Assembly: GCA_021789915.1 (NCBI GenBank)
Contig: JAJYIV010000002.1
Span: 613-64,612, forward strand
Direction of reading: 5' to 3'
Source of the DNA: a bacterium
GTDB lineage: Bacteria > Patescibacteriota > Patescibacteriia > UBA9934 > GWF2-40-263
Length of the DNA stretch: 64,000 bases
The notes beneath the pieces are model-generated. The model had not been told where the DNA came from. It saw only the letters and a program-made list of their open reading frames with translations, and made no database searches. Within the stretch, counting starts at the first letter, position 1. Each line of letters begins with the position of its first letter. The position numbers and the translations under genes are program-made. Below are positions 14,886 through 64,000 of the stretch, one piece after another.

Positions 14886-16211
14886 TTAGAGCCTGTTCAT
14901 CCGGCAGACGAAGCTCTTCAAATACGCCGCCTCGGGGAAATACACGGACAACGGATGATCCGGGCTCTGACGCACGACCTCGAGCACCTGCAGGTCGACG
15001 CCCGCCTGCACCGACGCGCGGCGCAGCAGGAAGACCAAGTCCTCCTCCGGCAGGAAATGCGAACAGCTGGACGTGATGAAGATGCCGCCGTCCTTCACGA
15101 GCTTGAGCGCGGCGCGGTTCAGGAAATGATAGGCCTTCTTCCCTTCCTCGGCGTCCTTCATCGACTTGATGAGCGCCGGCGGATCCATAACGACGACGTC
15201 GAAAGCGCCGGCAACCCCCTCAGACTCCCCCTTGGCAAGGGGGAGATGGTGCGGGTTGGCGAGCCACTGGAAGACGTCCGCTTTCTCCGTCGCGCAGACC
15301 TCGTCGGACAAGCCGGCCGCCGCCGCCTGCGCGCGCAGCGATGCCAGCGCTTCCTCGGATCCGTCGACGTTCAGGACGGATTTCGCCCCGCCGGCGAAAG
15401 CGGCGAAGGACGTGGCACCGGTGTATGAAAAGAGATTCAGAACCGTCTTCCCTTGCGCGAGCGCGGCGACCCGGTCGCGCAGGTCCTTCTGGTCGAGGAA
15501 GAATCCCGTCTTTTGTCCGTGAAGAGGATCGGCGACGCAACGCCGGCCGTGCTCGAGAAATTCGACTTGACCCAATGCGCGTCCTCCCCTTTCCAAGGGG
15601 AGGCTGCCTGCTGGCCGCTTTTCAGCAGGCGGAGGTGTTGCCGGCGTGTGAATTCTGACGACCGCCTCCAGGTTCTCCTCGCGCCGGCTCGGCATGTCGC
15701 TGCGCTCGACGATCGCGCGCGGCTTGAACGTCTCTTCCAGCGCGGCGACGACGTCGTCACGCAGCGCGTCGAGACCGGCGGTTGCGATCTGGCATACGAG
15801 CACGTCGCCGTAGCGGTCGACGACCAAGCCCGGAATCCCGTCGGACTCGCCGAACACGCAGCGGTAGCCGGTCGTGAACTTCTCCCCCTTTTCAAGGGGG
15901 AGACTCTGCTCCAGAGGGGGTCGAGGGCCGTATCCCATCAAAACCCGTTTCTGGTGCGCATCCGCGATCTTGGCCGCCAGCCAGGCGCGGTCGATGACGG
16001 CCTCTTTGAACGCAAACACGCGCACGGCGATGGACGAGCTGGCGGAGTACGTCCCCGTGCCGATGATGCGCCCCTGGCGGTCCGCGACGTGCACGAGGGC
16101 GCCATGCTCGGGTTTCTTCTGACCGTCGGCCAGCGCGCGCGAAAAAATCCACGGATGGCGGAAGCCGACATTGGCCTCCTTCCCTTCTTTGAGCTTCAGG
16201 ACGGGGTACAT
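14886..16211 (-). CDS. rlmI: 23S rRNA (cytosine-C5)-methyltransferase RlmI (PUA + class I SAM MTase) carrying in-frame repeat insertions
   Basis: MYPVLKLKEGKE... PUA N-terminus and an Ado-Met MTase domain; 442 aa versus about 395 typical; extra segments coincide with repeat copies at 15225, 15583 and 15882. Confidence 0.75.
   Translation of the reverse strand: MYPVLKLKEGKEANVGFRHPWIFSRALADGQKKPEHGALVHVADRQGRIIGTGTYSASSSIAVRVFAFKEAVIDRAWLAAKIADAHQKRVLMGYGPRPPLEQSLPLEKGEKFTTGYRCVFGESDGIPGLVVDRYGDVLVCQIATAGLDALRDDVVAALEETFKPRAIVERSDMPSRREENLEAVVRIHTPATPPPAEKRPAGSLPLERGGRALGQVEFLEHGRRCVADPLHGQKTGFFLDQKDLRDRVAALAQGKTVLNLFSYTGATSFAAFAGGAKSVLNVDGSEEALASLRAQAAAAGLSDEVCATEKADVFQWLANPHHLPLAKGESEGVAGAFDVVVMDPPALIKSMKDAEEGKKAYHFLNRAALKLVKDGGIFITSSCSHFLPEEDLVFLLRRASVQAGVDLQVLEVVRQSPDHPLSVYFPEAAYLKSFVCRMNRL
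15225..15245. repeat. Partial family-P hairpin (CTCCCCCTTGGCAAGGGGGAG) inside rlmI
   Basis: seen directly. Confidence 0.55.
15583..15648. repeat. GC-rich palindromic repeat (family P, forward orientation) in-frame inside rlmI
   Basis: CCTCCCCTTTCCAAGGGGAGG-CTGCCTGCTGGCC-GCTTTTCAGCAGGCGGAGGTGTTGCC; near-identical to 63803..63868. Confidence 0.75.
15882..15922. repeat. Partial family-P hairpin (CTCCCCCTTTTCAAGGGGGAG) inside rlmI
   Basis: seen directly. Confidence 0.55.
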
Positions 16212-16333
16212 AGGAAATTCGTGAAGATAGATGCGCGAGAAGAAAGCGAGTATGACAGAACGCCGCCGTCTTGTCGAGGAGAAGGCCGCGCCAAGAAAAA
16301 GCCCTCGTCCAGCGCTGGACGAGGGAGAGTCTT

Positions 16334-18099
16334 TCAAGTGGCGTTCCCGATGTTGTGCCGGCAGTGATCCGGCAGCATCGGCTGCAGCTTCCTGCGGAAG
16401 GCGGACGGCACGCGCTGCCACAGCAGGCGCGCCGCTTCGGGCTCGGCGGCGAGTCCCCAGAAGAGATCCTTCCATCCGTCGAGGCCGACGCCCTTCACGA
16501 AATCGTCCGGCTGGTCGCGGGTAAGGAACGCGAGCAGCCACGCCAGGAAGCGGAAGTCCCCGCCCCACCGGACGCCGAATCCCGGACCGACGGCCTGTAC
16601 AAGTCGGTGCGGCGTCAGAGATCCGTCGAACGCGCCGGACGCGAACAGCGCGAGGATGCCGTCGCGCAGCGGTTGTTCGCCGGCTTCCCACGCGTGCATC
16701 CAGAACCCGAGATCGAGGCGCTTGTTGTCGGGCCGCAGAATTTCCGGACCGAGATGACGCACCGCCACGTTGAGGCACGCGTGCACATCCGACGGCGGCA
16801 GATCGCTCGCGATGACCGCCGCCCACGGATACTCGTCTCGCATGCGCCGCTTCACGTCCGACGGCCATCGTTCGGCCCCGCCGAGGTATTGGCGCAGCAG
16901 CTTGGGCGGCAGTCGCAGCAGCACGTTCGCGTCCGCCGTCGCGACGACCAGGTCGGCGATCGTGCGCGACGCGCCGACGCCGTGGACGAAGATCCAGGCC
17001 GACCACGTGCGCAGCACTTCCTCTTCGCCCACGTCGATGTCGTCGCTCGCGAGAAACCGCGCCTTCACGGCGTCCACGAACGCGAGGAACGACTCCCTGG
17101 CGAACGCGACGAACGCGTCTTCGTCGCGCGAATCGTCCAACGGAACCTTGTCAAAGATGCGCTCCGGTTCCATGCACACGGTCGACAGCCGCAGCCATCG
17201 GCGCAGCGCGTCGACGGCCGCCGGCAATCGGCGCGCCACGGCCTGCGGCTCGAAGAACGTCCGCTCGACCAGATCCTTGAGCGCCAGCGGCTCGACCTGG
17301 AAGTTCAAATCCATGAAGCGGTCGAGGGACGTGCCGAGCCCGCCCGACACCGGGAGGAACAACGCATCCGGAAGCGTGAGCGCCCGGACGAAGTAGCTGC
17401 GGACGAACAGGTCCAGCAAGCCGCCGTGCGGGCACGGCGCGTCGACAGCCGGACGCCGGAACAGCCGGCGGACGTACACGTTGATGATGTCGTCGCCGCT
17501 GAACCAGCCTCGGATCGGGAACTGCTCCGCCGCCCGGCGCAGCAGCCGTTCGTTCTCGTCGCACGAAGCGACAGCGGCCAGGTACGCGGCGCGATCGGAC
17601 GGCGCGGACGCGCCGCGCGCGAGCGAGGCCAGCGCCTGCTCGCGCCCGACGCTCAGAAGCCCGAAGGCCGAGCCGCTGAGTACGACGACGTTCCGCCGCG
17701 ACAGGGACGCGGCGCGCACGGCGAGCTCCGAAAGGAGCGCGGCGCCGACACCGTACATCTCGAACAGCGACGCGGCACGCAGCATCACGACCGCGGCGTC
17801 CGCGTCGCCCTCCGCCGCTTCTTCGAGGCCGAGCGACAGGCACGCGCCGACGCGTTCCATGGCGGCGCGCCGGCCGTCCGGCTGCAGGAGATCGAGCTTC
17901 CGCTCGGCCGCCGCCTGAACAAGGCAGGCCTGCACGGCGTCCGCATCCGCGTCGCGCGCGGCGAGCTCCGCGTCCTGCCGGGCCCGCGCGTACGCGGCGC
18001 GGAAGAACGCGGAGGCGGTGCCCGGCTCTCGGCATTCGGCGCTCGGCGCGCGGAACGACCGCGCGAGCGCGCCTCCCGCTTGAACAATCGCCGTGTTCA
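16334..18099 (-). CDS. Hypothetical protein (about 588 aa), GTG start overlapping the upstream stop (GTGA)
   Basis: Long GC3-rich ORF; no motif recognised; N-terminal third Ala-rich and helical; the listed 736-aa ORF is an upstream over-extension. Confidence 0.5.
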
Positions 18100-18939: not shown

Positions 18940-19051
18940 CTGTCTTCCTCCGAGGAAGCCTGGGCACCCGGGAATCGGATGCGCAGGCGGCCGAAGGAAG
19001 ACGGCGGACCATAACAATAAAACCGCCGCGTGTCAATCAAAAGCCGTCCGC

Positions 19052-19477
19052 TTACGACGCCAGCCCGAGCTTTGCCTCGACGACCTGCAAACGCCCCTCG
19101 AAGCGATCCATCCGCAAGGTCGGCGCGACCAGCTCCTGCTCGATCGTCAGCTGCAGCCGCGCCACCTGGTCGCTCACGGCAAGGACTTCCTGACGAACGT
19201 CTTGAAGATCCTCCTTTGTCGCGAAACGGTCGAAATCGTCTTTCGTGGCAAAGTTCTGCAGATCGTCTTTCGTGGCAAAGTTCTGCAGATCGTCTTTCGT
19301 GGCAAAGTTCTGCAGATCGTCTTTCGTGGCAAAACGGTCGAAATCGGCCTTCATTGCCACATTCTCCTTTACGAAACCGATGAATTCGTGCATTTCCGAC
19401 GTTAAACCTTCGACCTTCCGTTCAAGGCCATCGAACTTCTGCGCCAGCTGATTTGTCGTCAGGTGTTCCTCACTCAT
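19052..19477 (-). CDS. Coiled-coil protein with four tandem 9-aa repeats (FATKDDLQN), low-GC gene
   Basis: 141 aa; encoded by 27-nt tandem DNA repeats; GC clearly below flanking sequence. Confidence 0.6.
   Translation of the reverse strand: MSEEHLTTNQLAQKFDGLERKVEGLTSEMHEFIGFVKENVAMKADFDRFATKDDLQNFATKDDLQNFATKDDLQNFATKDDFDRFATKEDLQDVRQEVLAVSDQVARLQLTIEQELVAPTLRMDRFEGRLQVVEAKLGLAS
19215..19345. repeat. 27-nt tandem repeat (GATCGTCTTTCGTGGCAAAGTTCTGCA, about 4.5 copies) inside a CDS
   Basis: Near-perfect direct copies seen directly. Confidence 0.8.
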
Positions 19478-19595
19478 ATATCGCTTCGAAGTATACGTCC
19501 TGAATTAAATCGCTTCAAACGAAAAGATCCCGCGTCTGTTTCAGACAGGGGATCTTTTGTCTCTGTGTGCATTTAAGCGGAAAAAACGGGTTTCG

Positions 19596-20252: not shown

Positions 20253-20253
20253 T

Positions 20254-21864: not shown

Positions 21865-21875
21865 AGGGGGAAGCG

Positions 21876-21912
21876 GTTAGCCATTAGCTGTTAGCCGTTA
21901 GCTTCTAACTGT
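21876..21912. repeat. Heptamer tandem array (TTAGCCA/TTAGCTG/TTAGCCG/TTAGCTT)
   Basis: seen directly between pyrG and rplI. Confidence 0.55.
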
Positions 21913-21950
21913 TGACGAGAAACGGAAACACCTGCGGCGAGCGCAGGTGG

Positions 21951-22485: not shown

Positions 22486-22652
22486 ACATCTGCGTGTTCG
22501 CCGGTCTTCCCGCCTTCTGTACATCCGAGAAGGACGGCATGGTCGTCACCCTCCCCTACCCGTTAGCGAACGGTCGGGAGAATTCTGTCAGCTTCCGACT
22601 CCGCGGGAAGACAACGGTCCTCGCCGCGCCGCACATCGTCTACGTCCACTGA
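22486..22652 (+). pseudogene. 3' fragment (about 55 codons) of a paralog of the small membrane protein gene at 24740..25207; no plausible start codon
   Basis: ICVFAGLPAFCTSEKDGMVVTL...APHIVYVH aligns with ACVFGGLPAICETSKRGTDVAVFL...APHIIYVP; the downstream 81 bp is nearly identical. Confidence 0.55.
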
Positions 22653-22706
22653 CGCACGCGCGTCCGCGCGGTTCGTGAGCCCGACGCTCACGGCCGCCGC
22701 GGGCGC
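22625..22706. repeat. Left copy of an 81-bp direct repeat (4 mismatches to 25181..25261)
   Basis: GCGCCGCACATCGTCTACGTCCACTGACGCACGCGCGTCCGCGCGGTTCGTGAGCCCGACGCTCACGGCCGCCGCGGGCGC; contains palindromes GTGAGCCCGACGCTCAC and CGCGCGTCCGCGCG. Confidence 0.8.
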
Positions 22707-24241: not shown

Positions 24242-24411
24242 AAAGAAAGATTGAGACCTCTGAAAAACTGATGGATTTTCGTTGTCAGCCAAAGGCTGAT
24301 CAGCCTCTGGCTGAAATGGGCTGCCGAGCCCCGCGAACCCTACTGAAACGTAGGGAGAGCGGGGTCGGCGGGCGCCCATGAAACGAAAAGACGCCGTTTT
24401 GCAGAGGTCTC
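24242..24411. ncRNA. Structured element B with 10-bp terminal inverted repeats GAGACCTCTG...CAGAGGTCTC (homologous to element A)
   Basis: Compensatory changes relative to A: CAGCC-UCU-GGCUG versus CCGGC-UCU-GCCGG, and UUUUCGUU/AACGAAAA versus UGUUCGU/ACGAACA; conserved CUGAAAAAC-YGAUGG, AAUGG and UUUUGCAGAGGUCUC segments. Confidence 0.55.
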
Positions 24412-24739: not shown

Positions 24740-25207
24740 ATGTTTATGCGTCCCACGCTCGGCGTTCGGGACGAACAAGCCACCTTCCGGCCCTGCGGGG
24801 GCCTCACACAGAAGGAGAAAGCCGTGATCCACAGAATCGTGATTGGAACAGTCGTCGCCGTCGGTGTTCTCTACCTCGCAAAGCCCATCGTCGGGTACTT
24901 CCACGAACAGGACGTGAAGGTACGCGCCGAGACCGACGTCGTGTGCGCGCACGTGACCCCGGCCAACTGGGGCGGCGAGGACAGCGCAACCTGCCGTAAG
25001 CTCGTGGCCAAGTTCATCAACATCGACCTCAAGCCGAAGGCCTGCGTCTTCGGCGGACTCCCGGCCATTTGCGAGACGTCGAAGAGGGGCACCGATGTCG
25101 CCGTGTTCCTCAAACGAAAAGACGGGCCGCTCCAGTACAGCCTGCTGCCCATCATGACCAAGGAACAGCTGGCGAACTCGGCGCCGCACATCATCTACGT
25201 CCCCTGA
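24740..25207 (+). CDS. Small membrane-anchored protein (155 aa)
   Basis: SD GGGAAGGGG upstream of ATG; single TM segment IVIGTVVAVGVLYLA; its 3' end and downstream 81 bp are duplicated at 22486..22706. Confidence 0.55.
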   Translation: MFMRPTLGVRDEQATFRPCGGLTQKEKAVIHRIVIGTVVAVGVLYLAKPIVGYFHEQDVKVRAETDVVCAHVTPANWGGEDSATCRKLVAKFINIDLKPKACVFGGLPAICETSKRGTDVAVFLKRKDGPLQYSLLPIMTKEQLANSAPHIIYVP

Positions 25208-25261
25208 CGCACGCGCGTCCGCGCGGTTCGTGAGCCCAACGCTCACGGCCGCCGCGGGCGC
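25181..25261. repeat. Right copy of the 81-bp direct repeat
   Basis: see 22625..22706. Confidence 0.8.
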
Positions 25262-26862: not shown

Positions 26863-26943
26863 GATGGCTGTAGGCTTTTAGCTTTTAGCTGTTAGCCGAA
26901 ATAGTTCCCATCCGGCCAGTAGCCAATGGCTAATGGCCAAAAG
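26863..26943. repeat. Inverted heptamer arrays (GCTTTTAGCTTTTAGCTGTTAGCC ... GCCAATGGCTAATGGCC) forming an intercistronic hairpin between the two permease genes
   Basis: seen directly; arms are reverse-complementary heptamer runs with a 23-nt spacer. Confidence 0.6.
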
Positions 26944-40470: not shown

Positions 40471-41595
40471 TCAGGAGACGAGGGGACGCGCGATCGCGGC
40501 GGCGAGCGCTTCCATCCCCTGCCCCGTCGCCGCGGACACCGGCGCCACGGCCGCGAAGGCCCCCGCGTCGAACGCCGGGCCAAGGCGTCGCCGCCAATCG
40601 GCGCCGGCGGCGTCGATCTTGTTCACCGCGAGCACGCGCGGCGTTTCCGCGGCGCCCAAGCGCTTCAGGATCTCGTCCACCACGCGCAGATGGTCCGCCG
40701 CATGCGCGTCGGCGGCATCCACGACCTGCACGAGCACGTCGGCGTCCGCCGCCTCCGAGAGCGTCGATGCGAACGCGTTCAAGAGCTCGGGCGGCAGATT
40801 TTGGATGAAGCCGATCGTGTCGGAGACGAGCACCTGGCGCGGCGGCTCGTTCTCTTTCCTTGCGACGTACAGCGAGCCAACGCGCGTGTCGAGCGTGGCG
40901 AAGAGCTCGTCGGCCGCATACTCGCGCCGGCGCGTGAGCCGGTTCAGCAGCGACGTCTTGCCGGCGTTCGTGTAGCCGACGAGCGCCGCCGTGGGCAGGC
41001 CCTGCCGCCGACGCCGTTCCTGGCGCGCGCGACGCATCGTCTGATACCGCGCGAGCTTCTCCCCGACCGCTTCGGCGCGCTCGCGCAGGTGCCGGCGCAT
41101 GATCTCCGTGTTCGTCTCGCCCTTGCCGCGCGTACCGGTGCCGCCGCCCTGGCGCGACAATTCCAGGCCCATGCCGTAGATGCGCGGGCCCATGTGCCGG
41201 ATGCCGGCCAACTCGATCTCCAGCCGCGCCTCCGTCGTGCGCGCGTGCTTGGCGAAGATCTTCAAGATGAGATCGAGGCGGTCCCACACCTGGAGGCCGG
41301 CCGGGCGCAGCGCTTCCGAGAGAAGATAGACTTGCCGCGGCTTGAGCCGGTCGTTGATGACCACGAGCGCCGCCCCGAGCCGCTTCCCTTCCTCGGCCAG
41401 CTGCTCGATCTTTCCCGTACCGAGGAATGTCGCCGGATGCGGCGCCGCGCGGCGCTGATGCGTCTTCACGACGACGATGCCGCCGTACGTGCGCACGAGT
41501 TCTTCCAATTCCTGCAGCCGATCCAAACTCTCCGCCTTCGTGAGCCGCGGCGGGATCAGATCGACGAGAATGGTTTTGAGGAGACGGTCGGCCAT
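40471..41595 (-). CDS. hflX: GTPase HflX
   Basis: N-terminal HflX domain plus G-domain (GYTNAGKTSLLN, DTIGF, NKID). Confidence 0.85.
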   Translation of the reverse strand: MADRLLKTILVDLIPPRLTKAESLDRLQELEELVRTYGGIVVVKTHQRRAAPHPATFLGTGKIEQLAEEGKRLGAALVVINDRLKPRQVYLLSEALRPAGLQVWDRLDLILKIFAKHARTTEARLEIELAGIRHMGPRIYGMGLELSRQGGGTGTRGKGETNTEIMRRHLRERAEAVGEKLARYQTMRRARQERRRRQGLPTAALVGYTNAGKTSLLNRLTRRREYAADELFATLDTRVGSLYVARKENEPPRQVLVSDTIGFIQNLPPELLNAFASTLSEAADADVLVQVVDAADAHAADHLRVVDEILKRLGAAETPRVLAVNKIDAAGADWRRRLGPAFDAGAFAAVAPVSAATGQGMEALAAAIARPLVS

Positions 41596-42074
41596 GCGGA
41601 GACAGCGTTTCAAAAAGATTGACGGGCGTCAAACGAAAAAAGCCCGGCGGTTCGCTCAACCGCCGGGGCGTGGACGTCGTCGCGGCGGTTTGCGTCATCT
41701 GCCGAACGCTCGACGCCGTTCCCGTGCCTGCGCGTTCAAAAGCGCCGTCAGCTCTTCGGCCATCGTACGATCGTCCTCGGCCACGACGGGGACTGACGCC
41801 GACGGCAGGTCCGGATGCCCCAAGTAATCGAGGAAGTGGGTTACGCCTCCGTCTCGCCGACGGACGACGGTTTCCCGCGGGACGAAAAACGTCTGCTTCG
41901 TCTTGCCCGTGCTTCGCCTCCTTTCTAGACGCGGATACGTGCCTGCACAAAGGTACCCGACGCAGCATGTTCCGACAAACTCGCGTCCGCGCCCATCAAA
42001 AATCCCCGCGCGAGCAGTGCCAAACAAAAAACGCTCCGTCCTTGTCCGGTGAGAGACGAGAACGGAGCCGTCGT

Positions 42075-42871: not shown

Positions 42872-42899
42872 AAAAATCCCCGCATGCGCGGGGATTTTT
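42872..42899. terminator. Bidirectional terminator (AAAAATCCCCGC-ATG-CGCGGGGATTTTT)
   Basis: seen directly downstream of hup. Confidence 0.7.
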
Positions 42900-46440: not shown

Positions 46441-46600
46441 TGGAGTCAGAAGTCAGAAGTCAGAAGTCAGGGCGGAGGAGTAGCCAGGAGCATGTAGTTC
46501 GTAGTCAGGGCGAGACACGCGGGCTAAAGCCTAACACCTGCCGAATGCCGAATGCCGCCGGCTGAAACCTAGAACCTGAAACCTAAAGCCCAACGCCTCA
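46441..46600. repeat. Cluster of short tandem repeats (AGTCAGA x3-4, TGCCGAA x2-3, GAAACCT-type x3)
   Basis: seen directly in the convergent intergenic region. Confidence 0.6.
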
Positions 46601-51349: not shown

Positions 51350-53398
51350 TCACCGCACGCGCGTCCGGAACAGCTCGTCCGGCCACTTGGCGAAATACTT
51401 GAGGAAGCTGATCGAGTGCGCGCGGGCCATCCGGTTGACGAGCAGCGTGCGCAGCAGGCTGCCCTGGCGCACCGATCCCTTGCCGTAGGCATGCTGCAGC
51501 GCCGCATCGGCCACATAGTACACCGGCCGGTGCATCGCCCACGAGCGGCGGCACAGATCCACGTCCTCGAAGTACATCCAGAAGCGCTCGTCGAAGCCGC
51601 CCAGCGCGCGCCAGTGCTCCATCGGCAGGAACAGCGCGGAGCCCTGCGCCCAATCCACCATGCGCGTTTCGCCTGGCGGCGTGTCGCGCATCAGGAAACG
51701 ATGGAGGTAGCGGCGGCCGAAGGCCGTGCCGCCGAGCGTCGTGCGCTGGACGAGCGGCAGCGGCCACGACGGGAAGCGGCGCACGGTTTCCTGCGCCTGT
51801 CCGTCGGGATAGACGATCTTGGGCGCGGCGATGCCGGCGCGCGGATGCGCGCGCATGAACGCGACGAGCTTGGCGAAGAGCCGATCGTCGACGAGTTCCG
51901 TATCCGGGTTCAGCACGAAGAGGAACTCGGCGTCGAGCTCGGCGGCGCCGCGGTTCACGGAGCTGCCGTAGCCGGCGTCCCAGTTGCGCTGGACGACCAC
52001 GCCGTCGGGAATCGCGTCCCACAGCACGGCCGCGGCATCGTACGCCGTCGACGCGTTGTCCACGACGACGACGCCGACGCGCAGGCCGGACGCCTTGCGC
52101 GCGCGATCGAGCGAACGCAGACACGCGGCGCTCAAATCGTCGTGCGAGACGATGACGACGGCGATGTCGAGGTAAGTAGCTGGCGGCTGGGGGCTGGCGG
52201 CTGGGGGAGAAAACGGGAGCGGGGCCTGCGCGCGCGCCGCGTCCGCGGGCGACGGCACGGCGCGAACCGCGCCGAACCGCGCGGCGTACGCGCGCCGCTT
52301 CGTGATCAGCTCATGCCGATGCTCCCACGTTTCCCGCCACGCCTCGGTGCACACGCGCGGCCGCATGACGAGCCAATATGCCGCCTTCGCCGCCTCATAC
52401 GGAAGCACGGCCCATGCGCGCGCCGGCGCCGAACGGAACTCCCCCTGGCTCCCTCTTGAAAAGAGGGGGAAGTGCATCGCCAGCGTCCAAAGATGGTTGC
52501 GGTACGAGTGGAACACCGGCCGCCAGGTTTGCGCGGTGCGGCCGATTCCCCCCCTGCCTGCCTCGCATACCCCCCGCCTGCCAAAATGCGGCCAGCAGGC
52601 AGCCCCCCTTGGCAGGGGGGCAATCCTGGCCGTGCCGAAGCTGCGGCGATGGTACGCGACGGCGTCGGACACGACGCCGGAGGCGAAGCCCGCGCGGCGC
52701 AATCTCCACGCAAGCTCGACGTCTTCCTTGTACGAGACGAACGACGGGTCAAACAAATTCCCGTCCAACGACGCCGCCTCTACCGCCGCACGGCGATACA
52801 TCGGCAGGCAGCCCGACACCCCGAACGCCTCGTGCACGCCCTCATGCAGCTGCGCCGTCGAAACACGCTCCCCTGCTCCGATGTCGCGCACGGCGCCCGT
52901 TGCCGACATCGCCAAGCCGAAACTGTCGATCACGTCCGTGCGCCCGCCGGACCCCTCTGCCCAGCTGAGCTGGGCCGTCCCCCCTTGGCAGGGGGGGACG
53001 ACACACGCCGCCCGATCGAAATCCCATCGATACACGCGCCCGGCGACGGACCCGAGCCGCGCGTCCGCGTCCAGCGCGGCGACGAGCCGCTCGAGATACG
53101 CCGGTTCCAGGATCGCATCGTCGTTGTGCAGCATCACGTACGCCGCCTGATGCTTGGAGAACAGCAGGTTATGCGCGCCGGCAAAGTCGACGTTGCGCGG
53201 CCCGACGTCCACGTACACGGCGCGGTCGCCGAGTTCCCGCGCGAACGCGCGCACCGCCTCGGCCTGCACGGGATCCGACGCATTGTCCGTCACGTACAGC
53301 GTCCAATCGCGGAACGTCTGCGCGCGCAGGGACGCCAAAATATGCGGCAGGTACCGCGCGCCGTCGTAGCAGGAAAGTTGGATGGCGAGTTTGGACAT
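51350..53398 (-). CDS. Tandem double-domain glycosyltransferase family 2, with in-frame family-P repeat insertions
   Basis: Two GT2 modules (LYVTDNASD...; VVVVDNASTAYD...); repeat-derived peptides VPPCQGGT and PLPRGAACWP. Confidence 0.7.
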   Translation of the reverse strand: MSKLAIQLSCYDGARYLPHILASLRAQTFRDWTLYVTDNASDPVQAEAVRAFARELGDRAVYVDVGPRNVDFAGAHNLLFSKHQAAYVMLHNDDAILEPAYLERLVAALDADARLGSVAGRVYRWDFDRAACVVPPCQGGTAQLSWAEGSGGRTDVIDSFGLAMSATGAVRDIGAGERVSTAQLHEGVHEAFGVSGCLPMYRRAAVEAASLDGNLFDPSFVSYKEDVELAWRLRRAGFASGVVSDAVAYHRRSFGTARIAPLPRGAACWPHFGRRGVCEAGRGGIGRTAQTWRPVFHSYRNHLWTLAMHFPLFSRGSQGEFRSAPARAWAVLPYEAAKAAYWLVMRPRVCTEAWRETWEHRHELITKRRAYAARFGAVRAVPSPADAARAQAPLPFSPPAASPQPPATYLDIAVVIVSHDDLSAACLRSLDRARKASGLRVGVVVVDNASTAYDAAAVLWDAIPDGVVVQRNWDAGYGSSVNRGAAELDAEFLFVLNPDTELVDDRLFAKLVAFMRAHPRAGIAAPKIVYPDGQAQETVRRFPSWPLPLVQRTTLGGTAFGRRYLHRFLMRDTPPGETRMVDWAQGSALFLPMEHWRALGGFDERFWMYFEDVDLCRRSWAMHRPVYYVADAALQHAYGKGSVRQGSLLRTLLVNRMARAHSISFLKYFAKWPDELFRTRVR
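52544..52625. repeat. GC-rich palindromic repeat (family P, reverse orientation) in-frame inside the tandem GT2 gene
   Basis: rc reads GCCCCCCTGCCAAGGGGGGGCTGCCTGCTGGCCGCATTTTGGCAGGCGGGGGGTATGCGAGG. Confidence 0.75.
52977..53000. repeat. Partial family-P hairpin (CCCCCCTTGGCAGGGGGGG) inside the tandem GT2 gene
   Basis: seen directly. Confidence 0.55.
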
Positions 53399-53404: not shown

Positions 53405-53535
53405 CTGGCAACCCCTCCGCCTGCCGATGGTCGGCCAGCAGGCAGCCTCCCCTTGGGGGGGCGCGTTTTTCCGCGTCCCCTCTTTTCCAAGAGCCTGTCC
53501 TGAGCGAGCGGAGCGAGTCGAAGGAAGGGGTCAAG
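53405..53535. repeat. Composite repeat (family P core plus the GCCTGTCCTGAGCGA..GTCGAAGGA.GGG module) filling the intergenic space
   Basis: seen directly. Confidence 0.65.
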
Positions 53536-55757: not shown

Positions 55758-55765
55758 AGAAGTTC

Positions 55766-55836
55766 GCCGTTAGCCGTTAGCCGTTAGGAAAAAGGACGCG
55801 CAGCCCCCCAAAGCCAAAGGCTAATGGCTAATGGCT
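55766..55836. repeat. Inverted heptamer arrays (GTTAGCC x3 ... GGCTAAT x2) between co-directional genes
   Basis: seen directly. Confidence 0.6.
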
Positions 55837-55840
55837 TTTT

Positions 55841-57857: not shown

Positions 57858-57943
57858 GGCGTCCCTCGTTTGCCGACAGCCGGCCGTCATGGCGGGCTGA
57901 TCGGAACACCCTAGAGAAAAATCCGGCCGCCGTCAATCGGCGT

Positions 57944-58354: not shown

Positions 58355-58408
58355 AGGTTTCCTATATCGCGTGATCCTTCGACTTCGCTCGCCTTCGGCT
58401 CGCTGCGC

Positions 58409-58624: not shown

Positions 58625-59460
58625 ACGTGCAGGAGCGTTTTCAGCGTGTCGGCAAGATTCGGCCGCGTCATCGTCACGTCCATGCGGTGGATGACGAAGG
58701 AAATTGGGGGCAGGGGGGGATTCGCCACGCCGGGCACCGACAGGACGATCTTCCATGCGCCGTTCTGCCGCAGGGCCGTCTTCGGGTTCACGGTGAACGT
58801 CGCAACCGTCCAGCCGTCCACCGTCCGCGGCGTCGCGTAGCGCGCGATCACGAAATCGATTCCCGCCGCGTCCAGATCCAAGCTCGGCAGCAGGCGCGAC
58901 GCGCCGGCGGGCAGCAAGCCGTCGTAGCGGTACTGCGCCATGCGGCTCCCCGCCGGCGGATGCGCGAGGAAATCCGCGATCGACGCGTACGTCGGCGTGC
59001 GCTGCAGCAGCACGAGGCCGTCCGCATCCAGCCGATGCCACGGCGAATCGTCGATCAGGGTGTTTTCCAGCGGTTGCAAATCATACTGCTCGTCCGGTCC
59101 TGGCTTCGTCAATGCGCCCGCCTCGACGATCGGCACGCCGGCATCCTTGAACCACACGTTGACCGTGACCGCGTCGAAGCGGCGCAGCGGATGCACGAAC
59201 GTGTATACCGGATCGCCGACGACGGCCTGCGCCGCAAGATTTCCCCCCTGCCAAGGGGGGAACGCCCGGCCCGGCTGGGCAAGGGGGGTCGGTGCCTGAA
59301 CGCGCTGGTCCGGCCGCAGCGGATCGACGAAGGCGCTGCGTTCTCCCGGCTCCCAGGAGACGCGGAACGTTCCCGTCGGCACGAGGAATTGCCAGCCCAA
59401 CCAGCCGAAGATCGCGATCGGCACGGCGATGATCAGGATTTGGAACGGACGTGGGGACAT
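58621..59460 (-). CDS. Hypothetical membrane-anchored protein with an in-frame family-P repeat
   Basis: N-terminal TM helix; the repeat at 59243..59293 is translated as RAFPPWQGGNLAAQ. Confidence 0.5.
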   Translation of the reverse strand: MSPRPFQILIIAVPIAIFGWLGWQFLVPTGTFRVSWEPGERSAFVDPLRPDQRVQAPTPLAQPGRAFPPWQGGNLAAQAVVGDPVYTFVHPLRRFDAVTVNVWFKDAGVPIVEAGALTKPGPDEQYDLQPLENTLIDDSPWHRLDADGLVLLQRTPTYASIADFLAHPPAGSRMAQYRYDGLLPAGASRLLPSLDLDAAGIDFVIARYATPRTVDGWTVATFTVNPKTALRQNGAWKIVLSVPGVANPPLPPISFVIHRMDVTMTRPNLADTLKTLLHV

Positions 59461-59467
59461 GGGAAGC

Positions 59468-59530
59468 GTTTAGCCATTAGCCGTTAGCCTTTAGCATGTG
59501 TCTCTCGCCTGACGGCTGACGGCTAATGGC
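59468..59530. repeat. Inverted heptamer arrays (TTAGCCA/TTAGCCG/TTAGCCT ... CTGACGG x2, CTAATGG)
   Basis: seen directly. Confidence 0.6.
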
Positions 59531-61409
59531 TTGCAATGACATACAGCGTCTCGATCCCGAACGTCTGCACCGGCACGAACGTAAGGCCGTCGGCCTTCAG
59601 TTTGTCCGTGTTGAGATAGTTCAGATCTTGCGCCGGCAGCGTGATGCCGAAGTAGTACGTCGGCGCGTGCGCGACGAGCGCGGGCAGCAGCGCATAGGTC
59701 CGCGGATCGCGCAGCGGATAGCGCACGGCGCGATCCGGAAAGAAGATTTTGTCGTCGCGGTCAACGACGATGACGGCGTCCGCCGGCGTCAGGCGCATCA
59801 CGGCGTCATGCACGGCGCGCTCTTGCGCCAACACCTGCGCCTCAGCGAACAAGCCGTCCTCCGGGGTCAGGAACGCCGTGCGGAACCCGAGCGCCGCCCA
59901 GGCGACCCAGCCGACGACGAGCACGACGGAGCCGAGGCGCTTCGCACGCGCGGCAAGCTCGTCGAGCGCCACGGCCGCGAGCGGCACCCAGGCGACGAAG
60001 ATCGGCAGCCAGTACCGCACGTGCGAATTGCCGACGGTGATCTGCGTCGGATCCGGATTGTCCGTGAACGTCCAGCTGCCGTACATCAGCACGAGCCAGA
60101 CCGTCACGACGAGGGCGACGAGGAGATAGGGCCAAAAGCAGCTGGCAGCTGGCAGCTGGCAGCTGGGGGAAGAACCGCGACGGCGCTTCGACAAGACGCG
60201 GACGGCCAACAAGATGATGCCGAGCGCCGCCAGGACGAACTCCCACCAGAACATCCTCAAGCCATAGGCGACGAACTGCCGCCAGGCCAGGCGCGGATGG
60301 ATGCCGAAGGGAAAGACGAAGGAGAGCGCTCGCTCCATGGCGCGCCGCCACGCGGGCATGGAGGCTCCGGGGGCGAGCGCTGCCGCAGACGTGGATGATT
60401 CCCCCCCTGCCAAGCCTGTCCTGAGCGAAGTCGAAGGAGGGGGGCTGCCGGCTGACTCCATGACGGCCGGCGGGGGGGTATGCGCCACGGCTATGGCCGG
60501 CACGGAGACGAGATCGCCGCCGGACGCGTCCGCCGCCGCCTGGTAGCCCGTCGTCCACGGCGAACCGTACAGACGCTGGTTCAAAAACGGCATGGGCGAG
60601 AGGACGACGAGGAACCCAAGCACGCCGGCGGCGACGAAGCGGCGATCCAGCTGCCGCCATTGCCAGGCGAAGGCGGCCGCCGCGGGAACGACCAACCACA
60701 CGGCTTCCGACGCGCGGATGAAGAGCGCGAGCCCCAGCAGCGCGCCCGCGGCGAAACCGTCGAGCGCATGGTGCCAGCGCCCCGCGGATGCACGGGAAGC
60801 GCCCGCGAGGATTGCCCCCCTGCCAAGGGGGGCTGCCTGCTGGCCGTCATGCGGCAGGCGGGGGGTATGCGAGGTGGACGTGGTGGAAGCGTTTTGAAAC
60901 GGCCGCGCGAGGAAAAACCAGAAGGCGAAGCCCACGCATGCGAGGAACGGCACATTGGGCATGAGCGAGCGGGCCGTGTAGAACCACCACGCCGGCTGCA
61001 GCGCGAGCAGCGCGCCCGCGATCCATCCCGCGCGCCGGCCGAACAGGCGCCCGAAGACGGCCGCCCACGCGAGCACGCCGAGCGCGGAGAGCAGGATCGG
61101 CACGTACGGGATCGCCCGGGCGCCGAACGCCTTCGCCGCGACGCCGAGCGCGAGCGGCAAGCCGAGGAAGCTCGCGGGAACGAGCGCGCCGCGCGTCGCA
61201 AGCACGCTGCGCGGATGCAGCGCGTCGCCGAGCGCGGCGGCGAGCGGCTCGGGCGCGGACAGCGTCGACGTCGCCGCGTACGCCCCGGCGAAGAACGACA
61301 CGGCCGTTTCGTCCGGCGACACGAAGATGGCTCCCGACGCGCGCAGCGCGAGGGAACCGAGGACGAGCAGCAGGCAGGAAGAGGCGAGCAGCCAGCGGAC
61401 GGGGTTCAT
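59523..61409 (-). CDS. Polytopic membrane glycosyltransferase, GT39/GT83-like (ArnT/PMT family), with two in-frame family-P repeat insertions
   Basis: 628 aa, more than 10 TM helices; repeat-derived peptides HDGQQAAPLGRGAILAG and SPPPSTSLRTGLAGGES. Confidence 0.5.
   Translation of the reverse strand: MNPVRWLLASSCLLLVLGSLALRASGAIFVSPDETAVSFFAGAYAATSTLSAPEPLAAALGDALHPRSVLATRGALVPASFLGLPLALGVAAKAFGARAIPYVPILLSALGVLAWAAVFGRLFGRRAGWIAGALLALQPAWWFYTARSLMPNVPFLACVGFAFWFFLARPFQNASTTSTSHTPRLPHDGQQAAPLGRGAILAGASRASAGRWHHALDGFAAGALLGLALFIRASEAVWLVVPAAAAFAWQWRQLDRRFVAAGVLGFLVVLSPMPFLNQRLYGSPWTTGYQAAADASGGDLVSVPAIAVAHTPPPAVMESAGSPPPSTSLRTGLAGGESSTSAAALAPGASMPAWRRAMERALSFVFPFGIHPRLAWRQFVAYGLRMFWWEFVLAALGIILLAVRVLSKRRRGSSPSCQLPAASCFWPYLLVALVVTVWLVLMYGSWTFTDNPDPTQITVGNSHVRYWLPIFVAWVPLAAVALDELAARAKRLGSVVLVVGWVAWAALGFRTAFLTPEDGLFAEAQVLAQERAVHDAVMRLTPADAVIVVDRDDKIFFPDRAVRYPLRDPRTYALLPALVAHAPTYYFGITLPAQDLNYLNTDKLKADGLTFVPVQTFGIETLYVIASH
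60400..60490. repeat. Family-P repeat plus GCCTGTCCTGAGCGAAGTCGAAGGAGGGG module, in-frame in the GT39-like gene
   Basis: seen directly. Confidence 0.7.
60812..60872. repeat. Family-P repeat (forward orientation), in-frame in the GT39-like gene
   Basis: GCCCCCCTGCCAAGGGGGGCTGCCTGCTGGCCGTCATGCGGCAGGCGGGGGGTATGCGAGG. Confidence 0.75.
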
Positions 61410-61430
61410 ACCATCACTCCACCACTTTTC

Positions 61431-62012
61431 TCACAACCCATACGTGAACAAGCTGATCACGGCCAGCATGAGGGCGATCACGAGGATGGCGACGGACCAG
61501 GCGAACAGCATGGCGTTGCCCGCCCACACGGACACCAGCAGCAAACTGACGCCGAGCGCCTGCGCGAACATCTTGGCCTTGCCGAAGACGTTCGCGCGCA
61601 TGTGGCGGCCGTGCCGTTTGCCCCAATAGCCGCCCAGCGCGATCAGCACGTCCACGCCGAGGATGGACAGCGCGAAGCGCATGCCGACATAACGGGCCAC
61701 GATGAGCAGGATGACGGAGCCGATGAGAAGCTTGTCGGCGACGGGATCGTAAAACGACCCCCAGTCCGTGATCTGGCGGCGGACGCGCGCGAGGGAACCG
61801 TCCAGCGCATCCGTCAATGCCGCAAAGACGAAGAGCGGCACGCCCCAAGCCCATCGTCCGGCGACAAGCAGCGCCAGGACGATCGGCGTCAGCGCGAAAC
61901 GCAGCCCCGTGACCATGTTCGGCGTCACCGAGTCCGGAATGAACGGCAAGATCGTGCGCGCCAGCACCCGGTCGTGCGGATACAGGGCGCGCGGGTCTCG
62001 TTGCAATGGCAT
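61431..62012 (-). CDS. CDP-alcohol phosphatidyltransferase (PgsA-like)
   Basis: DALDGSLAR...G...DPVADK CDP-OH phosphatidyltransferase motif; the rest of the listed ORF is an upstream over-extension. Confidence 0.75.
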   Translation of the reverse strand: MPLQRDPRALYPHDRVLARTILPFIPDSVTPNMVTGLRFALTPIVLALLVAGRWAWGVPLFVFAALTDALDGSLARVRRQITDWGSFYDPVADKLLIGSVILLIVARYVGMRFALSILGVDVLIALGGYWGKRHGRHMRANVFGKAKMFAQALGVSLLLVSVWAGNAMLFAWSVAILVIALMLAVISLFTYGL

Positions 62013-62106
62013 ACGACGGACGTGATACACTCTTTGCGCTATGCCTCGCGGACGGTTTGTCGTTAAATCTACCACCATTTGGACGATTTTTCCATTCGTT
62101 TTTGCC

Positions 62107-64000
62107 GTGAACGCGCTTTGGGTGAAAAACGCGGCCCTGGGCCTCGTACTGCTTGCGGCGTTTTTGGCGCTGCTCGGCTCGGCCGTCGGGCGCGCGGCGG
62201 CGCCCGAGGAGGGACGCGCGGTGCGCTGGTGGCTGGGCGTCTGGCAGCTGCTGTCCGCCCTCATCATTGTCGCCGCAGCGATGTATTATGCCATGCCGTT
62301 TTCGCCGGCGGCGGCCGATGTGCTCGTCATCCTCGCCCTCGCCGCTGCCTGGACGATCCGCGGGCGCGCGAAGACGCCGCCGCCTCGCCGGGCGGACGCT
62401 CCGGCGCAGCGCGGATGGCCTTTGGCCGCCGGGCTCGCCGCGCTCGCGGGTTTCGCCTCCACGCTGTTCCTGCTGCGCGCCTCCGCGACCGTCCGCGCGG
62501 TCGCGTCGCCGTGGGACGTCGTGTCCCCGTGGACATTCGTCGCGTTCGGCGCGGGTGTCTTGGCGCTGTCCGCTCTCTGGTTCCAGGGCCGCGGACGCGC
62601 GTCCGTTCCTCCGCCGGGATCGCCCCCCTGCCAAGGGGGGCTGCCTGCTGGCCTTGCCCCCCTGCCAAGGCCTGTCCTGAGCGAAGTCGAAGGAGGGGCT
62701 GCCCGCTGTCCGCACGGCGCCGGGCGGGGGGTTCCGTCGGCAGGCGTGGGGTTCATCGTCCCGCTCACGATTCTGGCGCTGTTCGTCTTTCTCAGCGTGA
62801 ACCTCGCCGTCTTCCCGCTGGGCGCCGGCTTCGACGCCTTCATCCATCGCGCGACGGAAGCGCACATCGCCGCGACCGGCAGCATCACGCCCAAGCCGCT
62901 TTACTACGCCGGCCAGTACGCGCTCGTCGTCCTCCTGCACCACGCCTTCGCGCTGCCCGTGGACGCCGTCGATCTCTGGCTGCTGCCGCTGCTCGCCGCG
63001 TTCCTGCTCCCGTCGGCGTGGACGGATGCGGCCGACCGTCTTCTTCCCGAGCGCCGCTGGGCGCCGTTCACGCTCGCGCTCCTGTTCCTGCTGCCGCTCG
63101 GCGCGTTCGCCACGACGACGCCGCAAGGTCTGGCGGATCTTTGGATTCTGCTGCTCGTGCTGGCAAGCGTGCCGCTGCTGGCGGCGTCTCCGCTTGACGG
63201 CCCGGCGCGGCGGCGGCGCCTGTGGCTGCTCGCGCTCTCCGCGCTGGCGACCGCGGCCATTCATCCGCTCGCCGGACTGCCCGCGCTTGCCTTCGTCGCG
63301 TATCTTGCCGCCGCGCGCACGCGATGGTTGCGCCGCGCGATCATCGCCGTCGGCGCGCTGCTGCTGCCCGTCAGCTTCCTCGTGGAGAACCGCGGCCTGG
63401 GCGGACGCGGGCTGGATCTTGCCGGGCTCTGGACGAAGCTCGCCGCGCTGTTCCCCGCCCCGCCCGCGCTGGGCGCGCCGTACCATCCGGCGCTGGATTT
63501 CGCCGCGGCGCTCGGCTGGGCGGCGGGATGGATCGTCCTGCTGCTGGCCATCCTCGGCTGGCGGCGCGCGCCGAACCGCCTGCGCTGGGCGGCGGCGGCG
63601 ATGGCGGGCCTGTTGCTGGCGGATTACGTGTTACTCGGCACCATCGTGGATTTTTCGTACCTGATCGACTATGAACGCGCGAGCTATGCCGCGCGCCTGC
63701 TGCCGCTCGCGCTGTTCTTTCTCGCGCCGCTCGCCATGGTCGGGTTGGGACGGATCCGGCAGCGGCTGGATGGATTCCCCCGCGCACGGGAGTCTGCCTC
63801 GTCCTCCCCTTTCCAAGGGGAGGCTGCCTGCTGGCCGCTTTCTGGCAGGCGGAGGGGTTGCCGGCGCAGCGAACAGGAAGGAAGGAAAGCGCCGCGCGCG
63901 GTGCGCTGGTTCGCCGTCGCGCTCGCCGCGGGAGCCGTGCTCGGCGCGTGGTATGCCGCCTATCCGCGCGACGACGCCTATCTCAAAGGCCACGGCTACA
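62107..64000 (+). CDS. Polytopic membrane protein (3' end beyond the window), GTG start, with two in-frame family-P repeats
   Basis: Hydrophobic frame runs from 62107 to the window end; absent from the ORF track because no stop is reached; repeats at 62622..62740 and 63803..63868 are translated as PPCQGGLPAG...SEVEGG and SPFQGEAACWP. Confidence 0.5.
   Translation, partial: MNALWVKNAALGLVLLAAFLALLGSAVGRAAAPEEGRAVRWWLGVWQLLSALIIVAAAMYYAMPFSPAAADVLVILALAAAWTIRGRAKTPPPRRADAPAQRGWPLAAGLAALAGFASTLFLLRASATVRAVASPWDVVSPWTFVAFGAGVLALSALWFQGRGRASVPPPGSPPCQGGLPAGLAPLPRPVLSEVEGGAARCPHGAGRGVPSAGVGFIVPLTILALFVFLSVNLAVFPLGAGFDAFIHRATEAHIAATGSITPKPLYYAGQYALVVLLHHAFALPVDAVDLWLLPLLAAFLLPSAWTDAADRLLPERRWAPFTLALLFLLPLGAFATTTPQGLADLWILLLVLASVPLLAASPLDGPARRRRLWLLALSALATAAIHPLAGLPALAFVAYLAAARTRWLRRAIIAVGALLLPVSFLVENRGLGGRGLDLAGLWTKLAALFPAPPALGAPYHPALDFAAALGWAAGWIVLLLAILGWRRAPNRLRWAAAAMAGLLLADYVLLGTIVDFSYLIDYERASYAARLLPLALFFLAPLAMVGLGRIRQRLDGFPRARESASSSPFQGEAACWPLSGRRRGCRRSEQEGRKAPRAVRWFAVALAAGAVLGAWYAAYPRDDAYLKGHGY
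62622..62740. repeat. Two tandem family-P cores plus the GCCTGTCCTGAGCGAAGTCGAAGGAGGGG module
   Basis: seen directly. Confidence 0.7.
63803..63868. repeat. Family-P repeat, near-identical to the rlmI copy at 15583
   Basis: 64 of about 66 nt identical. Confidence 0.8.

Follow-up and report, generated by a model that had tools for sequence, protein, structure and literature searches.

The stretch of DNA examined here, 64,000 nucleotides of contig JAJYIV010000002.1 (hereafter the window), derives from a 65% G+C, Uhrbacteria-like Patescibacteria metagenome-assembled genome (MAG), varies between 62 and 71% in G+C, and harbors a family of short G+C-rich hairpin repeats, most of which lie in frame inside protein-coding genes. 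The best matches of the window proteins RlmI, ArnT-like and GT2, whose genes are among the hosts of the repeat, were from Candidatus Uhrbacteria and other Patescibacteria MAGs.

Occurrence and Anatomy of the Repeat

A structural scan, together with repeat finding and fuzzy searches for modules, recognized 13 repeat loci with 15 units in the window (Table 1), and a fourteenth locus lies 3.9 kb past the window end (window-equivalent positions 67858–67925), within a GT4 glycosyltransferase gene. A preliminary description of this DNA had likewise counted about 14 copies, in a span opening at position 15200 that omitted the copy at 1508–1566 cited in the same text. The core 18-mer CCCCCCTGCCAAGGGGGG, with up to three mismatches, matched the window 10 times against 0.11 matches expected. 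MAFFT alignments misregistered hairpin 1 between subfamilies and left the variable second hairpin ungapped, and structural pattern scans with per-sequence shuffle tests were used instead.

Units measure 39–133 nt, mostly 53–60, and share one plan: a hairpin 1, then a second hairpin, then a G-run ending in T. Hairpin 1 consists of a run of four to eight C, a loop of 3–7 nt (TGCCAA, TTGCCAA, TTTCCAA or TTTTCAA) and a run of four to seven G. The second hairpin is of at least four kinds, the common CTGCCTGCTGGCC...GGCAGGCGG and the variants GCCCAGCT-CAGCTGGGC, GCCCGGCC-CGGCTGGGC and CTCTG-CTC-CAGAG, and in one unit TCTGA stands in its place. The copies at 60400 and 62654, both with the common kind, show compensated changes at one and the same pair, from T-A to G-C and to C-G. 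Folding predictions give either two local hairpins or one long palindrome, formed when the 5′ CCCCCC-TGCCAA pairs with the 3′ TTGGCA-GGC-GGGGGG; the terminal G-run can pair with the 5′ C-run, making the whole unit an imperfect palindrome. This outer pairing covers 5–10 nt (e.g., GAACCTCCCC...GGAGGGGTTC at 1508), which is short and simple for a transposase-binding terminal repeat. Compared with shuffled sequences, folding energies gave z values from −0.7 to −3.7, most copies not being exceptional. In Rfam scans (gathering thresholds for the window and 18 external loci, E-value mode for 52–64 kb) the units remained unmatched, and only tRNA, rRNA and the S15 leader were returned.

Two units contain, on the loop side of hairpin 1, a 24-nt module (CCTGTCCTGAGCGAAGTCGAAGGA, hereafter the D module), and at 62621–62753 a complete unit bearing it is nested within the second-hairpin loop of another unit. 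The D module occurs in the window at 60414–60442, 62670–62698 and 53470–53520, and its 18-mer CCTGAGCGAAGTCGAAGG was found at no fewer than 120 loci of JGI metagenomes (L161–L280; 35–69% G+C), usually as the center of a hairpin with a covarying outer stem (gtcatCC...GGatgac, tgtCC...GGaca, agcctgcCC...GGg) and in one of these loci (L166) as four tandem repeats with a 27-nt period. It is therefore an independent and widespread mini-repeat, here nested in hairpin 1.

Pairs of copies located in unrelated genes are 91–94% identical; the pair at 15582 and 63802, already reported as nearly identical, shares 94% of its positions over 67 nt. The copies are clustered, three of them in rlmI and nine within 52.5–63.9 kb, inside a cell-envelope glycosylation gene cluster.

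Table 1. Repeat units of the window and the genes that host them; the strand of a unit is that of its C-run, and encoded peptides are those read in the frame of the host gene.
Feature	Position	Strand	Context or support
Full intergenic unit (hairpin 1, hairpin 2, G-run-T)	1508..1566	-	Begins 6 nt past the ORF 24..1502 stop; upstream of tRNA-Gln
rlmI, 441 aa, three units	14886..16211	-	PUA_3 and Methyltrans_SAM domains
Short unit (hairpin 1, TCTGA spacer, GGGGGT tail), rlmI site 3	15207..15245	-	Sense; encodes LPLAKGESEGVAG
Full unit, rlmI site 2	15582..15641	+	Antisense; encodes ATPPPAEKRPAGSLPLERGG
Short unit with 5-bp second hairpin, rlmI site 1	15882..15923	+	Antisense; encodes RPPLEQSLPLEKGE
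Tandem GT2 glycosyltransferase gene, 682 aa, two units	51350..53398	-	Pfam GT2 domains
Full unit, tandem GT2 gene	52566..52622	-	Sense; encodes IAPLPRGAACWPHFGRRGVC
Unit with different second hairpin GCCCAGCTCAGCTGGGC, tandem GT2 gene	52947..52999	-	Sense; encodes VPPCQGGTAQLSWAEGSG
Full intergenic unit	53409..53463	-	10 nt separate its end from the downstream GT2 start codon
D-like module (reverse-complement variant with 9-nt duplication) and small hairpin	53464..53535	-	Adjoins the 53409 copy; fills the remaining intergenic gap
Hypothetical gene, 279 aa	58621..59460	-	No Pfam match
Unit with third type of second hairpin GCCCGGCCCGGCTGGGC, hypothetical gene	59241..59293	+	Antisense; encodes APTPLAQPGRAFPPWQGGN
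ArnT/PMT_2-like GT-C membrane glycosyltransferase gene, 628 aa (homologues ~545–555), two units	59523..61409	-	Homologues carry PMT_2
Unit with D module in hairpin-1 loop and compensated second hairpin, ArnT/PMT_2-like gene	60400..60479	+	Antisense; encodes TPPPAVMESAGSPPPSTSLRTGLAGGE
Full unit, ArnT/PMT_2-like gene	60813..60867	+	Antisense; encodes HTPRLPHDGQQAAPLGRGA
Membrane protein gene, 790 aa, runs off the window	62041..64413	+	No Pfam match
Nested composite (two units and D module), membrane protein gene	62621..62753	+	Sense; encodes PPCQGGLPAGLAPLPRPVLSEVEGGAARCPHGAGRGVPSAGVGF
Full unit, membrane protein gene	63802..63861	+	Sense; encodes SSPFQGEAACWPLSGRRRGC

Host Genes and Reading Frames

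Eleven of the 15 units are intragenic and are distributed over five intact open reading frames (ORFs), only the copies at 1508–1566 and 53409–53535 being intergenic, as the preliminary description had it. Some of its gene calls required correction: the table gives the revised limits of rlmI, the membrane protein starts at 62041 and not at 62107, and the host labeled GT39-like has homologues that are PMT_2/ArnT-like. Long spurious ORFs are common at high G+C, and third-position G+C (GC3) was therefore used to call coding regions. On either side of every intragenic copy the GC3 signal (0.8–0.95) kept the same phase and strand, dipping only within the copy, Pfam domains flank the copies, and the host ORFs are uninterrupted.

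All 11 intragenic units preserve the frame, adding a multiple of three bases, and are free of stop codons; frameshifts or stops in most copies, named beforehand as evidence against tolerated insertion, were not found. The units are stop-free in nearly all six frames, a trivial property for such G+C-rich sequence, and the informative part is the preservation of frame by all 11, the outcome expected from selection against frameshifts. About five units run sense and six antisense to their host genes, a nearly even split. Each of the three sense frames is in use, the peptides PPCQGG, PLGRGA and (G/E)AACWP recurring much as first reported, and one antisense frame recurs three times (TPPPA...AGS(L/P)P..RGG). 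The 94%-identical copies at 15582 and 63802, read from opposite strands, yield the unrelated peptides ATPPPAEKRPAGSLPLERGG and SSPFQGEAACWPLSGRRRGC. Nearly identical DNA thus encodes unrelated peptides in different strands and frames, which places the conservation at the level of nucleic acid and not of peptide: the copies are a family of DNA repeats and not a protein motif.

Comparison With Homologous Proteins

The comparison with orthologues covered seven of the 11 intragenic units, namely those of RlmI, tandem GT2 and the ArnT-like protein, and in the alignments all seven appeared as insertions of 13–40 aa absent from the closest homologues, in agreement with what the preliminary description had expected of such a check. 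The ArnT-like protein carries two extra segments of ~38–40 aa that are lacking in a 62%-identical homologue and in nearly all of 14 others. In the tandem GT2 protein a 16-aa insert is absent from nine of nine homologues and a 26-aa insert from eight of nine, both being absent from a 64%-identical one.

RlmI, aligned with 15 and then with 60 homologues, is 441 aa long compared with ~390–403 aa in these, which fits the excess of ~45 aa noticed at the outset. Its extra segments are RPPLEQSLPLEKGE at site 1, TPATPPPAEKRPAGSLPLERG at site 2 and LPLAKGESEGVAG at site 3. Sites 1 and 2 are filled in the window protein alone among 61 sequences. Site 3 is empty in the closer homologues P0002–P0008, P0004 and P0010 and is filled in the distant P0036 (TPLSKGEEEGVAGAY), P0045 and P0009, so that orthologues with a segment at the same position, anticipated as a mark of ancestral linkers, exist for this site. 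The DNA of P0045, from a 54% G+C genome, shows at site 3 two hairpin-1 units followed by GGGGGTCTACCGGCG, with the same tail as in the window (GGGGGTTGCCGGCG). Site 3 holds either an old insertion that was lost several times, or a site that was hit repeatedly.

An AlphaFold2 model of RlmI, built from the 61-sequence alignment, reached a mean pLDDT of 89.6 and a pTM of 0.86, and pLDDT fell to 49–69 only at residues ~97–112, 190–212 and 322–336, which are the three inserts. Each insert was modeled as coil between secondary-structure elements, and length variation among the homologues themselves occurs at the same three positions and in the N-terminal loop. Low-confidence coil at sites of variable length fits a filter for tolerant loops.

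Distribution in Other Genomes

Exact scans for the window subfamily (CCAAGGGG[N]GGCTGCCTGCTGGCC) returned no match in 185,579 GTDB species-representative genomes or in JGI metagenomes, and the long second hairpin seems private to the lineage of the window. The 16-mer hairpin core CCCCCTGCCAAGGGGG was instead detected at a minimum of 120 loci of the genome collection. The matches listed include Cellvibrio, Marinomonas, Thiorhodospira, Methylovulum, Competibacteraceae, Planctomycetota, Bacteroidota, Cyanobacteria, Spirochaetes, Saccharibacteria, Nomurabacteria and Paceibacterota, in genomes spanning 33–72% G+C, and several carriers are cultured isolates. A run of five or more G ending in T followed within 50 nt in 75 of the 124 16-mer matches listed and in one of 124 mirror-image controls; all window copies possess the same hairpin (five or more C, short loop, five or more G) with the one-sided G-run-T tail. 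External spacers are either ~5 nt long (e.g., AGGTTGGGAGGGGGT) or form a small hairpin: of the 29 distinct spacers that reach 12 nt or more among the matches listed, 21 make a perfect stem of at least 4 bp (shuffles: mean 11%, maximum 28%). The 5′ arms of these 21 stems are of 14 different sequences, and GNA triloops account for 14 of the 21 loops. C-GNA-G triloops are typical of unusually stable DNA mini-hairpins, and their presence is a hint, not a proof, that single-stranded DNA is the relevant form.

In 87 cross-phylum copies, conservation of the flanks ends ~7 nt upstream of the C-run and directly after the final T. The short window copy at 15207 (CTCCCCCTTGCCAAGGGGGAGTCTGAGGGGGT) is nearly identical to an external one in L091 (CTCCCCCTGCCAAGGGGGAGTCGGAGGGGGT), and such near-identity of short units indicates that the window copies belong to the cross-phylum family, with the second hairpin locally expanded. 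The family is thus not peculiar to this genome, its core architecture being cross-phylum.

External copies are intergenic in 36 cases and within ORFs in 12 (11 of 15 units are intragenic in the window); at loci of 58% G+C or less, 12 of 57 tail-bearing copies lie inside ORFs, and the remainder mostly between tandem or convergent genes, where copies between tandem genes are in sense orientation by about 2:1. Host genes identified by Pfam encode an NAD-dependent DNA ligase (LigA), with the copy within the adenylation domain (L044, Nomurabacteria), MetRS (L043), a UvrD-family helicase (L031) and MiaA (L095, 33% G+C), all three in Saccharibacteria, HsdM (L049, Thiotrichaceae), an MmeI-family enzyme (L089, Synergistaceae) and a multihaem cytochrome (L123, uncultured bacterium). 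The SufS genes of L042, L065 and L074 were discarded as members of the family, as their native MPPWQGGG matches the 16-mer.

A protein search with the concatenated repeat peptides missed even the window's own proteins, which makes it unusable as a census, and returned a single match, an N-terminal fragment of LepA/EF4 (P0207, 193 aa, NCBI) with a nested insert of ~45 aa between the conserved ...KYTY and LNLIDTPGHVDF segments. The fragment, whose source is probably the genome of the window or a close relative of it, has an out-of-frame tail at its end (…NKIDLRPPTCRRARRSW), which may mark a frameshift due to another element or else an error of assembly.

The 128 ORFs located within 1.5 kb of cross-phylum copies belong most commonly to HsdS (5) and rve (3), and with three of 128 rve was rejected as an associated enzyme. 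Restriction-modification genes are over-represented near the element, with copies inside HsdM and the MmeI-family gene and HsdS among the neighbors; this could be a real association, or could stem from chance or from related loci having been sampled repeatedly. On viral contigs 12 of 34 matches had the full architecture and many others were plain terminators, a set uninformative about vectors.

Two arrangements were also observed around external copies. In several proteobacterial MAGs (L038, L096, L097, L113, L114, L117) the repeat AACCACCCCGGCGCTGCGCGCCACCCCTCCTTA regularly lies ~30–60 nt downstream of the hairpin element, which suggests larger composite repeats built of several mini-modules. 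Marinomonas alcarazii CECT 7730 carries tandem arrays (L070 3337–3768 and L077 28–149) with units of 104–106 nt, five of them in L070, each made of two different C-run/G-run hairpins.

Other Assemblies and Further Features of the Window

The window sequence is also present in NCBI assembly GCA_027328745.1 (contigs DAHWTR010000018.1 and ...06.1), in ENA ERZ27233565 and in Logan SRR13170411, with 99.9–100% identity, and one NCBI contig reaches 7,409 nt past the window end. The Logan contig of the same organism terminates exactly within two repeat copies, as expected of assemblies at repeats.

The only length polymorphism among the assemblies of this organism concerns a 27-nt tandem repeat of at least five units within a small ORF (19196–19365), whose product is longer by two units in the NCBI assembly (141 aa) than in that of ENA (123 aa). 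An 81-nt direct duplication (96% identity; 22626–22706 and 25181–25261) flanks the tRNA-Ala region, and a 157-nt piece (24253–24409), which may be an invertible or a misassembled segment, is inverted in NCBI contig L003 where that contig leaves the window sequence. ARAGORN called a 94-nt tRNA-Ala(GGC) at 40523–40616 (minus strand) inside an HflX-like GTPase gene (40471..41613); with no Rfam support, this call is probably a false positive.

A second repeat family consists of the heptamer GGCTAAN in arrays of three to four tandem units (26 matches against 1.4 expected), located at 11329–11348, 12516–12535, 14774–14800, 21877–21903, 26878–26940, 46522–46534, 55763–55838 and 59470–59533. These arrays occupy short intergenic gaps by gene starts or stops, often as inverted pairs able to form long hairpins; they may be terminators, operators or another mini-element, and recall the heptamer repeats of cyanobacteria. 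The plain palindrome CCCCGCATGCGCGGGG at 42878–42893, intergenic and flanked by A-runs and T-runs, lacks the G-run-T tail, is for this reason placed outside the hairpin family and looks like an ordinary bidirectional terminator.

Discussion

The repeat of the window is quite probably a selfish, non-autonomous, REP/MITE-like composite hairpin, whose in-frame copies in tolerant loops persist and are translated together with the host gene. Such an element would have spread to many genomic sites in either orientation and, in a gene-dense genome, most sites would be coding; as its sequence is nearly stop-free in six frames, the surviving copies would be those that lengthened a structurally tolerant loop by some multiple of three bases. 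Persisting copies, judging by the conservation of frame, would be transcribed and translated with the host gene, adding 13–45 residues rich in Pro, Gly, Ala and Arg that probably form a disordered surface loop. The stem of the second hairpin varies freely in sequence while pairing is kept, which points to selection on the hairpin shape, and units and D module are able to lodge in one another's hairpin loops.

Spread by transposition is suggested by the identity of whole units in unrelated genes, the sharp boundaries, the nesting, the absence from homologues and the cross-phylum distribution. The lack of target-site duplication, the covarying stems and the GNA triloops favor a single-stranded DNA or template-switch route over DDE cut-and-paste. 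We regard as tentative, and as somewhat doubtful, the more specific proposal of a single-stranded DNA hairpin as the intermediate, processed without target-site duplication by an HUH/Y1 RAYT-like transposase or a similar enzyme whose gene lies elsewhere.

Several observations weigh against the interpretation of the repeat as a selfish mobile element. Target-site duplications of 3–5 nt did not exceed a shuffled-pair control in the 87 cross-phylum copies and none was evident in the window. Every window ORF with coding signal was checked by Pfam, directly or through the annotations of matching contigs, and neither Pfam nor precomputed annotation disclosed a transposase, integrase, HUH or Y1 protein in the window and the 7.4 kb beyond it, so that the cognate enzyme (transposase, integrase or nuclease) sought since the preliminary description did not emerge there; Y1_Tnp was equally absent among the 128 neighboring ORFs of the cross-phylum copies. 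No presence/absence polymorphism was detected, all copies being identical across four independent assemblies, all of one strain. The recent mobility first proposed from the near-identical copies is thus an inference. Clustering of the copies is not predicted by simple random insertion, the copy at RlmI site 3 may be old, and the evidence for translation of the inserts is the conservation of frame. The cross-phylum set was, moreover, chosen by an exact 16-mer, and convergence on simple C-run/G-run hairpins may have contributed to it.

A far broader proposal, possible and yet on balance unlikely, is that of a pan-bacterial family of hairpin mini-elements of ~35–60 nt, of which the window would contain a locally expanded branch and the D module would be a second family. 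Its members would move with the help of an enzyme as single-stranded DNA without target-site duplication, prefer existing hairpin loops and cross phyla. In the streamlined Patescibacteria, whose genomes have hardly any intergenic space, they would be a major ongoing source of lineage-specific loop insertions in essential proteins (LigA, MetRS, UvrD, MiaA, LepA, RlmI).

Hairpins could also arise without transposition: replication forks would make them in place through template switching or the correction of quasi-palindromes, and gene conversion between copies would then homogenize them, with no dedicated enzyme. The absence of target-site duplications and of a transposase in the window or near cross-phylum copies would follow naturally, as would perfect stems of variable sequence, a tail that partially repeats the 3′ arm of hairpin 1, units nested in hairpin loops and the same RlmI site filled in several lineages; we nevertheless judge this origin improbable, since units of 55–70 nt with non-palindromic flanks (GGATTG...GTATGCGAGG; CGTCC...GTTGCCGGCG) recur at 91–94% identity in unrelated genes, the sharply bounded unit is found in unrelated phyla at 33–72% G+C, and de novo generation would not reproduce the loop and tail sequences. 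Chances are slimmer still for a selected, non-selfish cis-acting element, serving mRNA stabilization, translational pausing for membrane-protein folding, recombination or protein binding, or a G-quadruplex/hairpin switch. Window genes show no preferred orientation of the copies, even if external copies between tandem genes lean toward sense, and the host genes are functionally unrelated (an rRNA methylase and glycosyltransferases here; LigA, MetRS and MiaA elsewhere), against the clustering in cell-envelope glycosylation genes; a hairpin shape kept through covariation and a C-run able to pair alternatively with two G-runs would suit a function, while the mostly unexceptional folding energies, the lack of an Rfam family and the location in loops generally tolerant of indels would not. 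Antisense copies were also considered as intrinsic terminators, the tail as a Shine-Dalgarno sequence and the ends as attC-like, and all were rejected: the orientation statistics do not fit, the spacing is inconsistent, and the GTTRRRY motif does not occur in the window tails.

Removal of the inserts before the mature protein, as mini-introns from the RNA or in an intein-like manner from the protein, would leave the host proteins unaffected, and strong hairpins could in principle be processing sites in inserts that interrupt conserved domains. It would require neither multiples of three nor stop-free copies, and yet 11 of 11 units have both properties; the two orientations are about equally used, lengths (39–133 nt) and sequences vary, the Rfam scans found no intron family, no intein-like sequence is present in units of 13–45 codons, and the inserts sit where homologues also vary in length. 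We hold such removal to be very improbable, and more so the derivation of the inserts from ancestral low-complexity linkers that resemble each other by composition. The segment at RlmI site 3 in P0036, P0045 and P0009 and the richness in Pro, Gly and Ala would agree with linkers, a reading that is largely refuted already by 91–94% nucleotide identity between copies read in different frames and strands, by the absence from the closest homologues at seven sites and by the existence of intergenic copies. Finally, short-read contigs do break at the copies, as they would if these were chimeric joins at simple G/C runs created by assembly or binning; the same sequence in NCBI, ENA and Logan assemblies, the frames kept across all copies and the family members in the cultured isolates Cellvibrio fontiphilus (KCTC 52237), Marinomonas alcarazii (CECT 7730) and Thiorhodospira sibirica (ATCC 700588) reduce the probability of an artefact to almost nothing.

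The closest parallel is offered by the Rickettsia palindromic elements (RPE; Ogata et al. 2000 Science, 2002 Genome Res; summarised in PMC10969869), to which the preliminary description had compared the repeat. In both cases a dispersed palindromic repeat of a small genome occupies, in frame, genes that are unrelated and intact and often have housekeeping roles; the protein fold accommodates the inserts (here by AlphaFold2, for RlmI only), and no transposase is known. The window repeat is, however, G+C-rich and not A+T-rich, measures typically 53–60 nt (39–133) compared with ~100–150 bp, is modular, with two hairpins and a G-run, and nested, and is read in several frames and on both strands, whereas each RPE family encodes one conserved peptide; it resides in Patescibacteria with a core spread across many phyla, as opposed to one genus. 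By base composition (65% G+C host, G/C-run stems) homology is unlikely, and of the original comparison the presence of in-frame repeats in unrelated tolerant genes stands while membership in the family probably does not: the parallel seems apt in the sense of ‘works like’.

REP sequences, REPINs and intragenic REPs, including the GTAG- and CGTC-tagged families (Di Nocera et al. 2013, PMC3733652; Bertels & Rainey 2011, PMC3116915), are likewise small, G+C-rich stem-loops of high copy number that sometimes pair up to form larger palindromes, have no target-site duplication and occasionally lie inside genes for known proteins; in other bacteria the element described here also occurs mostly between tandem or convergent genes. 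It differs in lacking a GTAG or CGTC tag (only YYCT adjoins the C-run in 87 copies, and CGTC precedes just two window copies) and a RAYT gene near copies (window and 7.4 kb beyond; 128 external neighbor ORFs), in being mostly intragenic in the window, and in its obligatory asymmetric G-run-T tail and second hairpin, which described REPs do not have. Among MITEs, those able to fuse with ORFs (Correia, ERIC, BOX, QMITE; PMC10969869, PMC3184786) share the small, non-autonomous nature, the inverted ends and the ability to add peptides in frame, unlike them the window units being much shorter, with inverted ends limited to a C-run and G-run of 5–10 nt, and having neither target-site duplication nor an identified parent insertion sequence. 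Both orientations are used and no Rfam intron family or intein-like sequence was found, which sets the units apart from self-splicing introns and inteins.

The small dispersed repeats of Nostoc and other cyanobacteria are reportedly hairpin-forming sequences of 21–27 nt, mainly intergenic and confined to cyanobacteria, and are said to nest in each other as well as in other kinds of repeat, no enzyme being known for this. They would resemble the window units as nesting hairpin repeats of some tens of nucleotides, and would differ from them in that the latter are mostly intragenic with a cross-phylum core. Literature searches by sequence, peptide and topic found no description of the element or of palindromes within ORFs in Patescibacteria. 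In its small size, modular and nested build, high G+C, Patescibacteria host and cross-phylum core it differs from the known cases of protein-coding palindromes and of REP-like elements within genes.

To our knowledge, in-frame protein-coding palindromes have for 25 years been treated as a peculiarity of Rickettsia and Wolbachia. The present results extend the phenomenon to high-G+C Patescibacteria, through a probably unrelated and much smaller element whose core is common to Gammaproteobacteria, Planctomycetota, Bacteroidota, Cyanobacteria and low-G+C Patescibacteria. In practical terms, such elements break short-read assemblies, seed spurious ‘hypothetical proteins’ and can mislead homology searches. 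Their presence in cultured Cellvibrio, Marinomonas and Thiorhodospira makes the movement of transposase-less, REP-like elements experimentally approachable. If translated, the inserts would offer natural experiments on the tolerance of enzyme loops, and would provide a concrete mechanism for the lineage-specific insertions that make the proteins of Patescibacteria look divergent.

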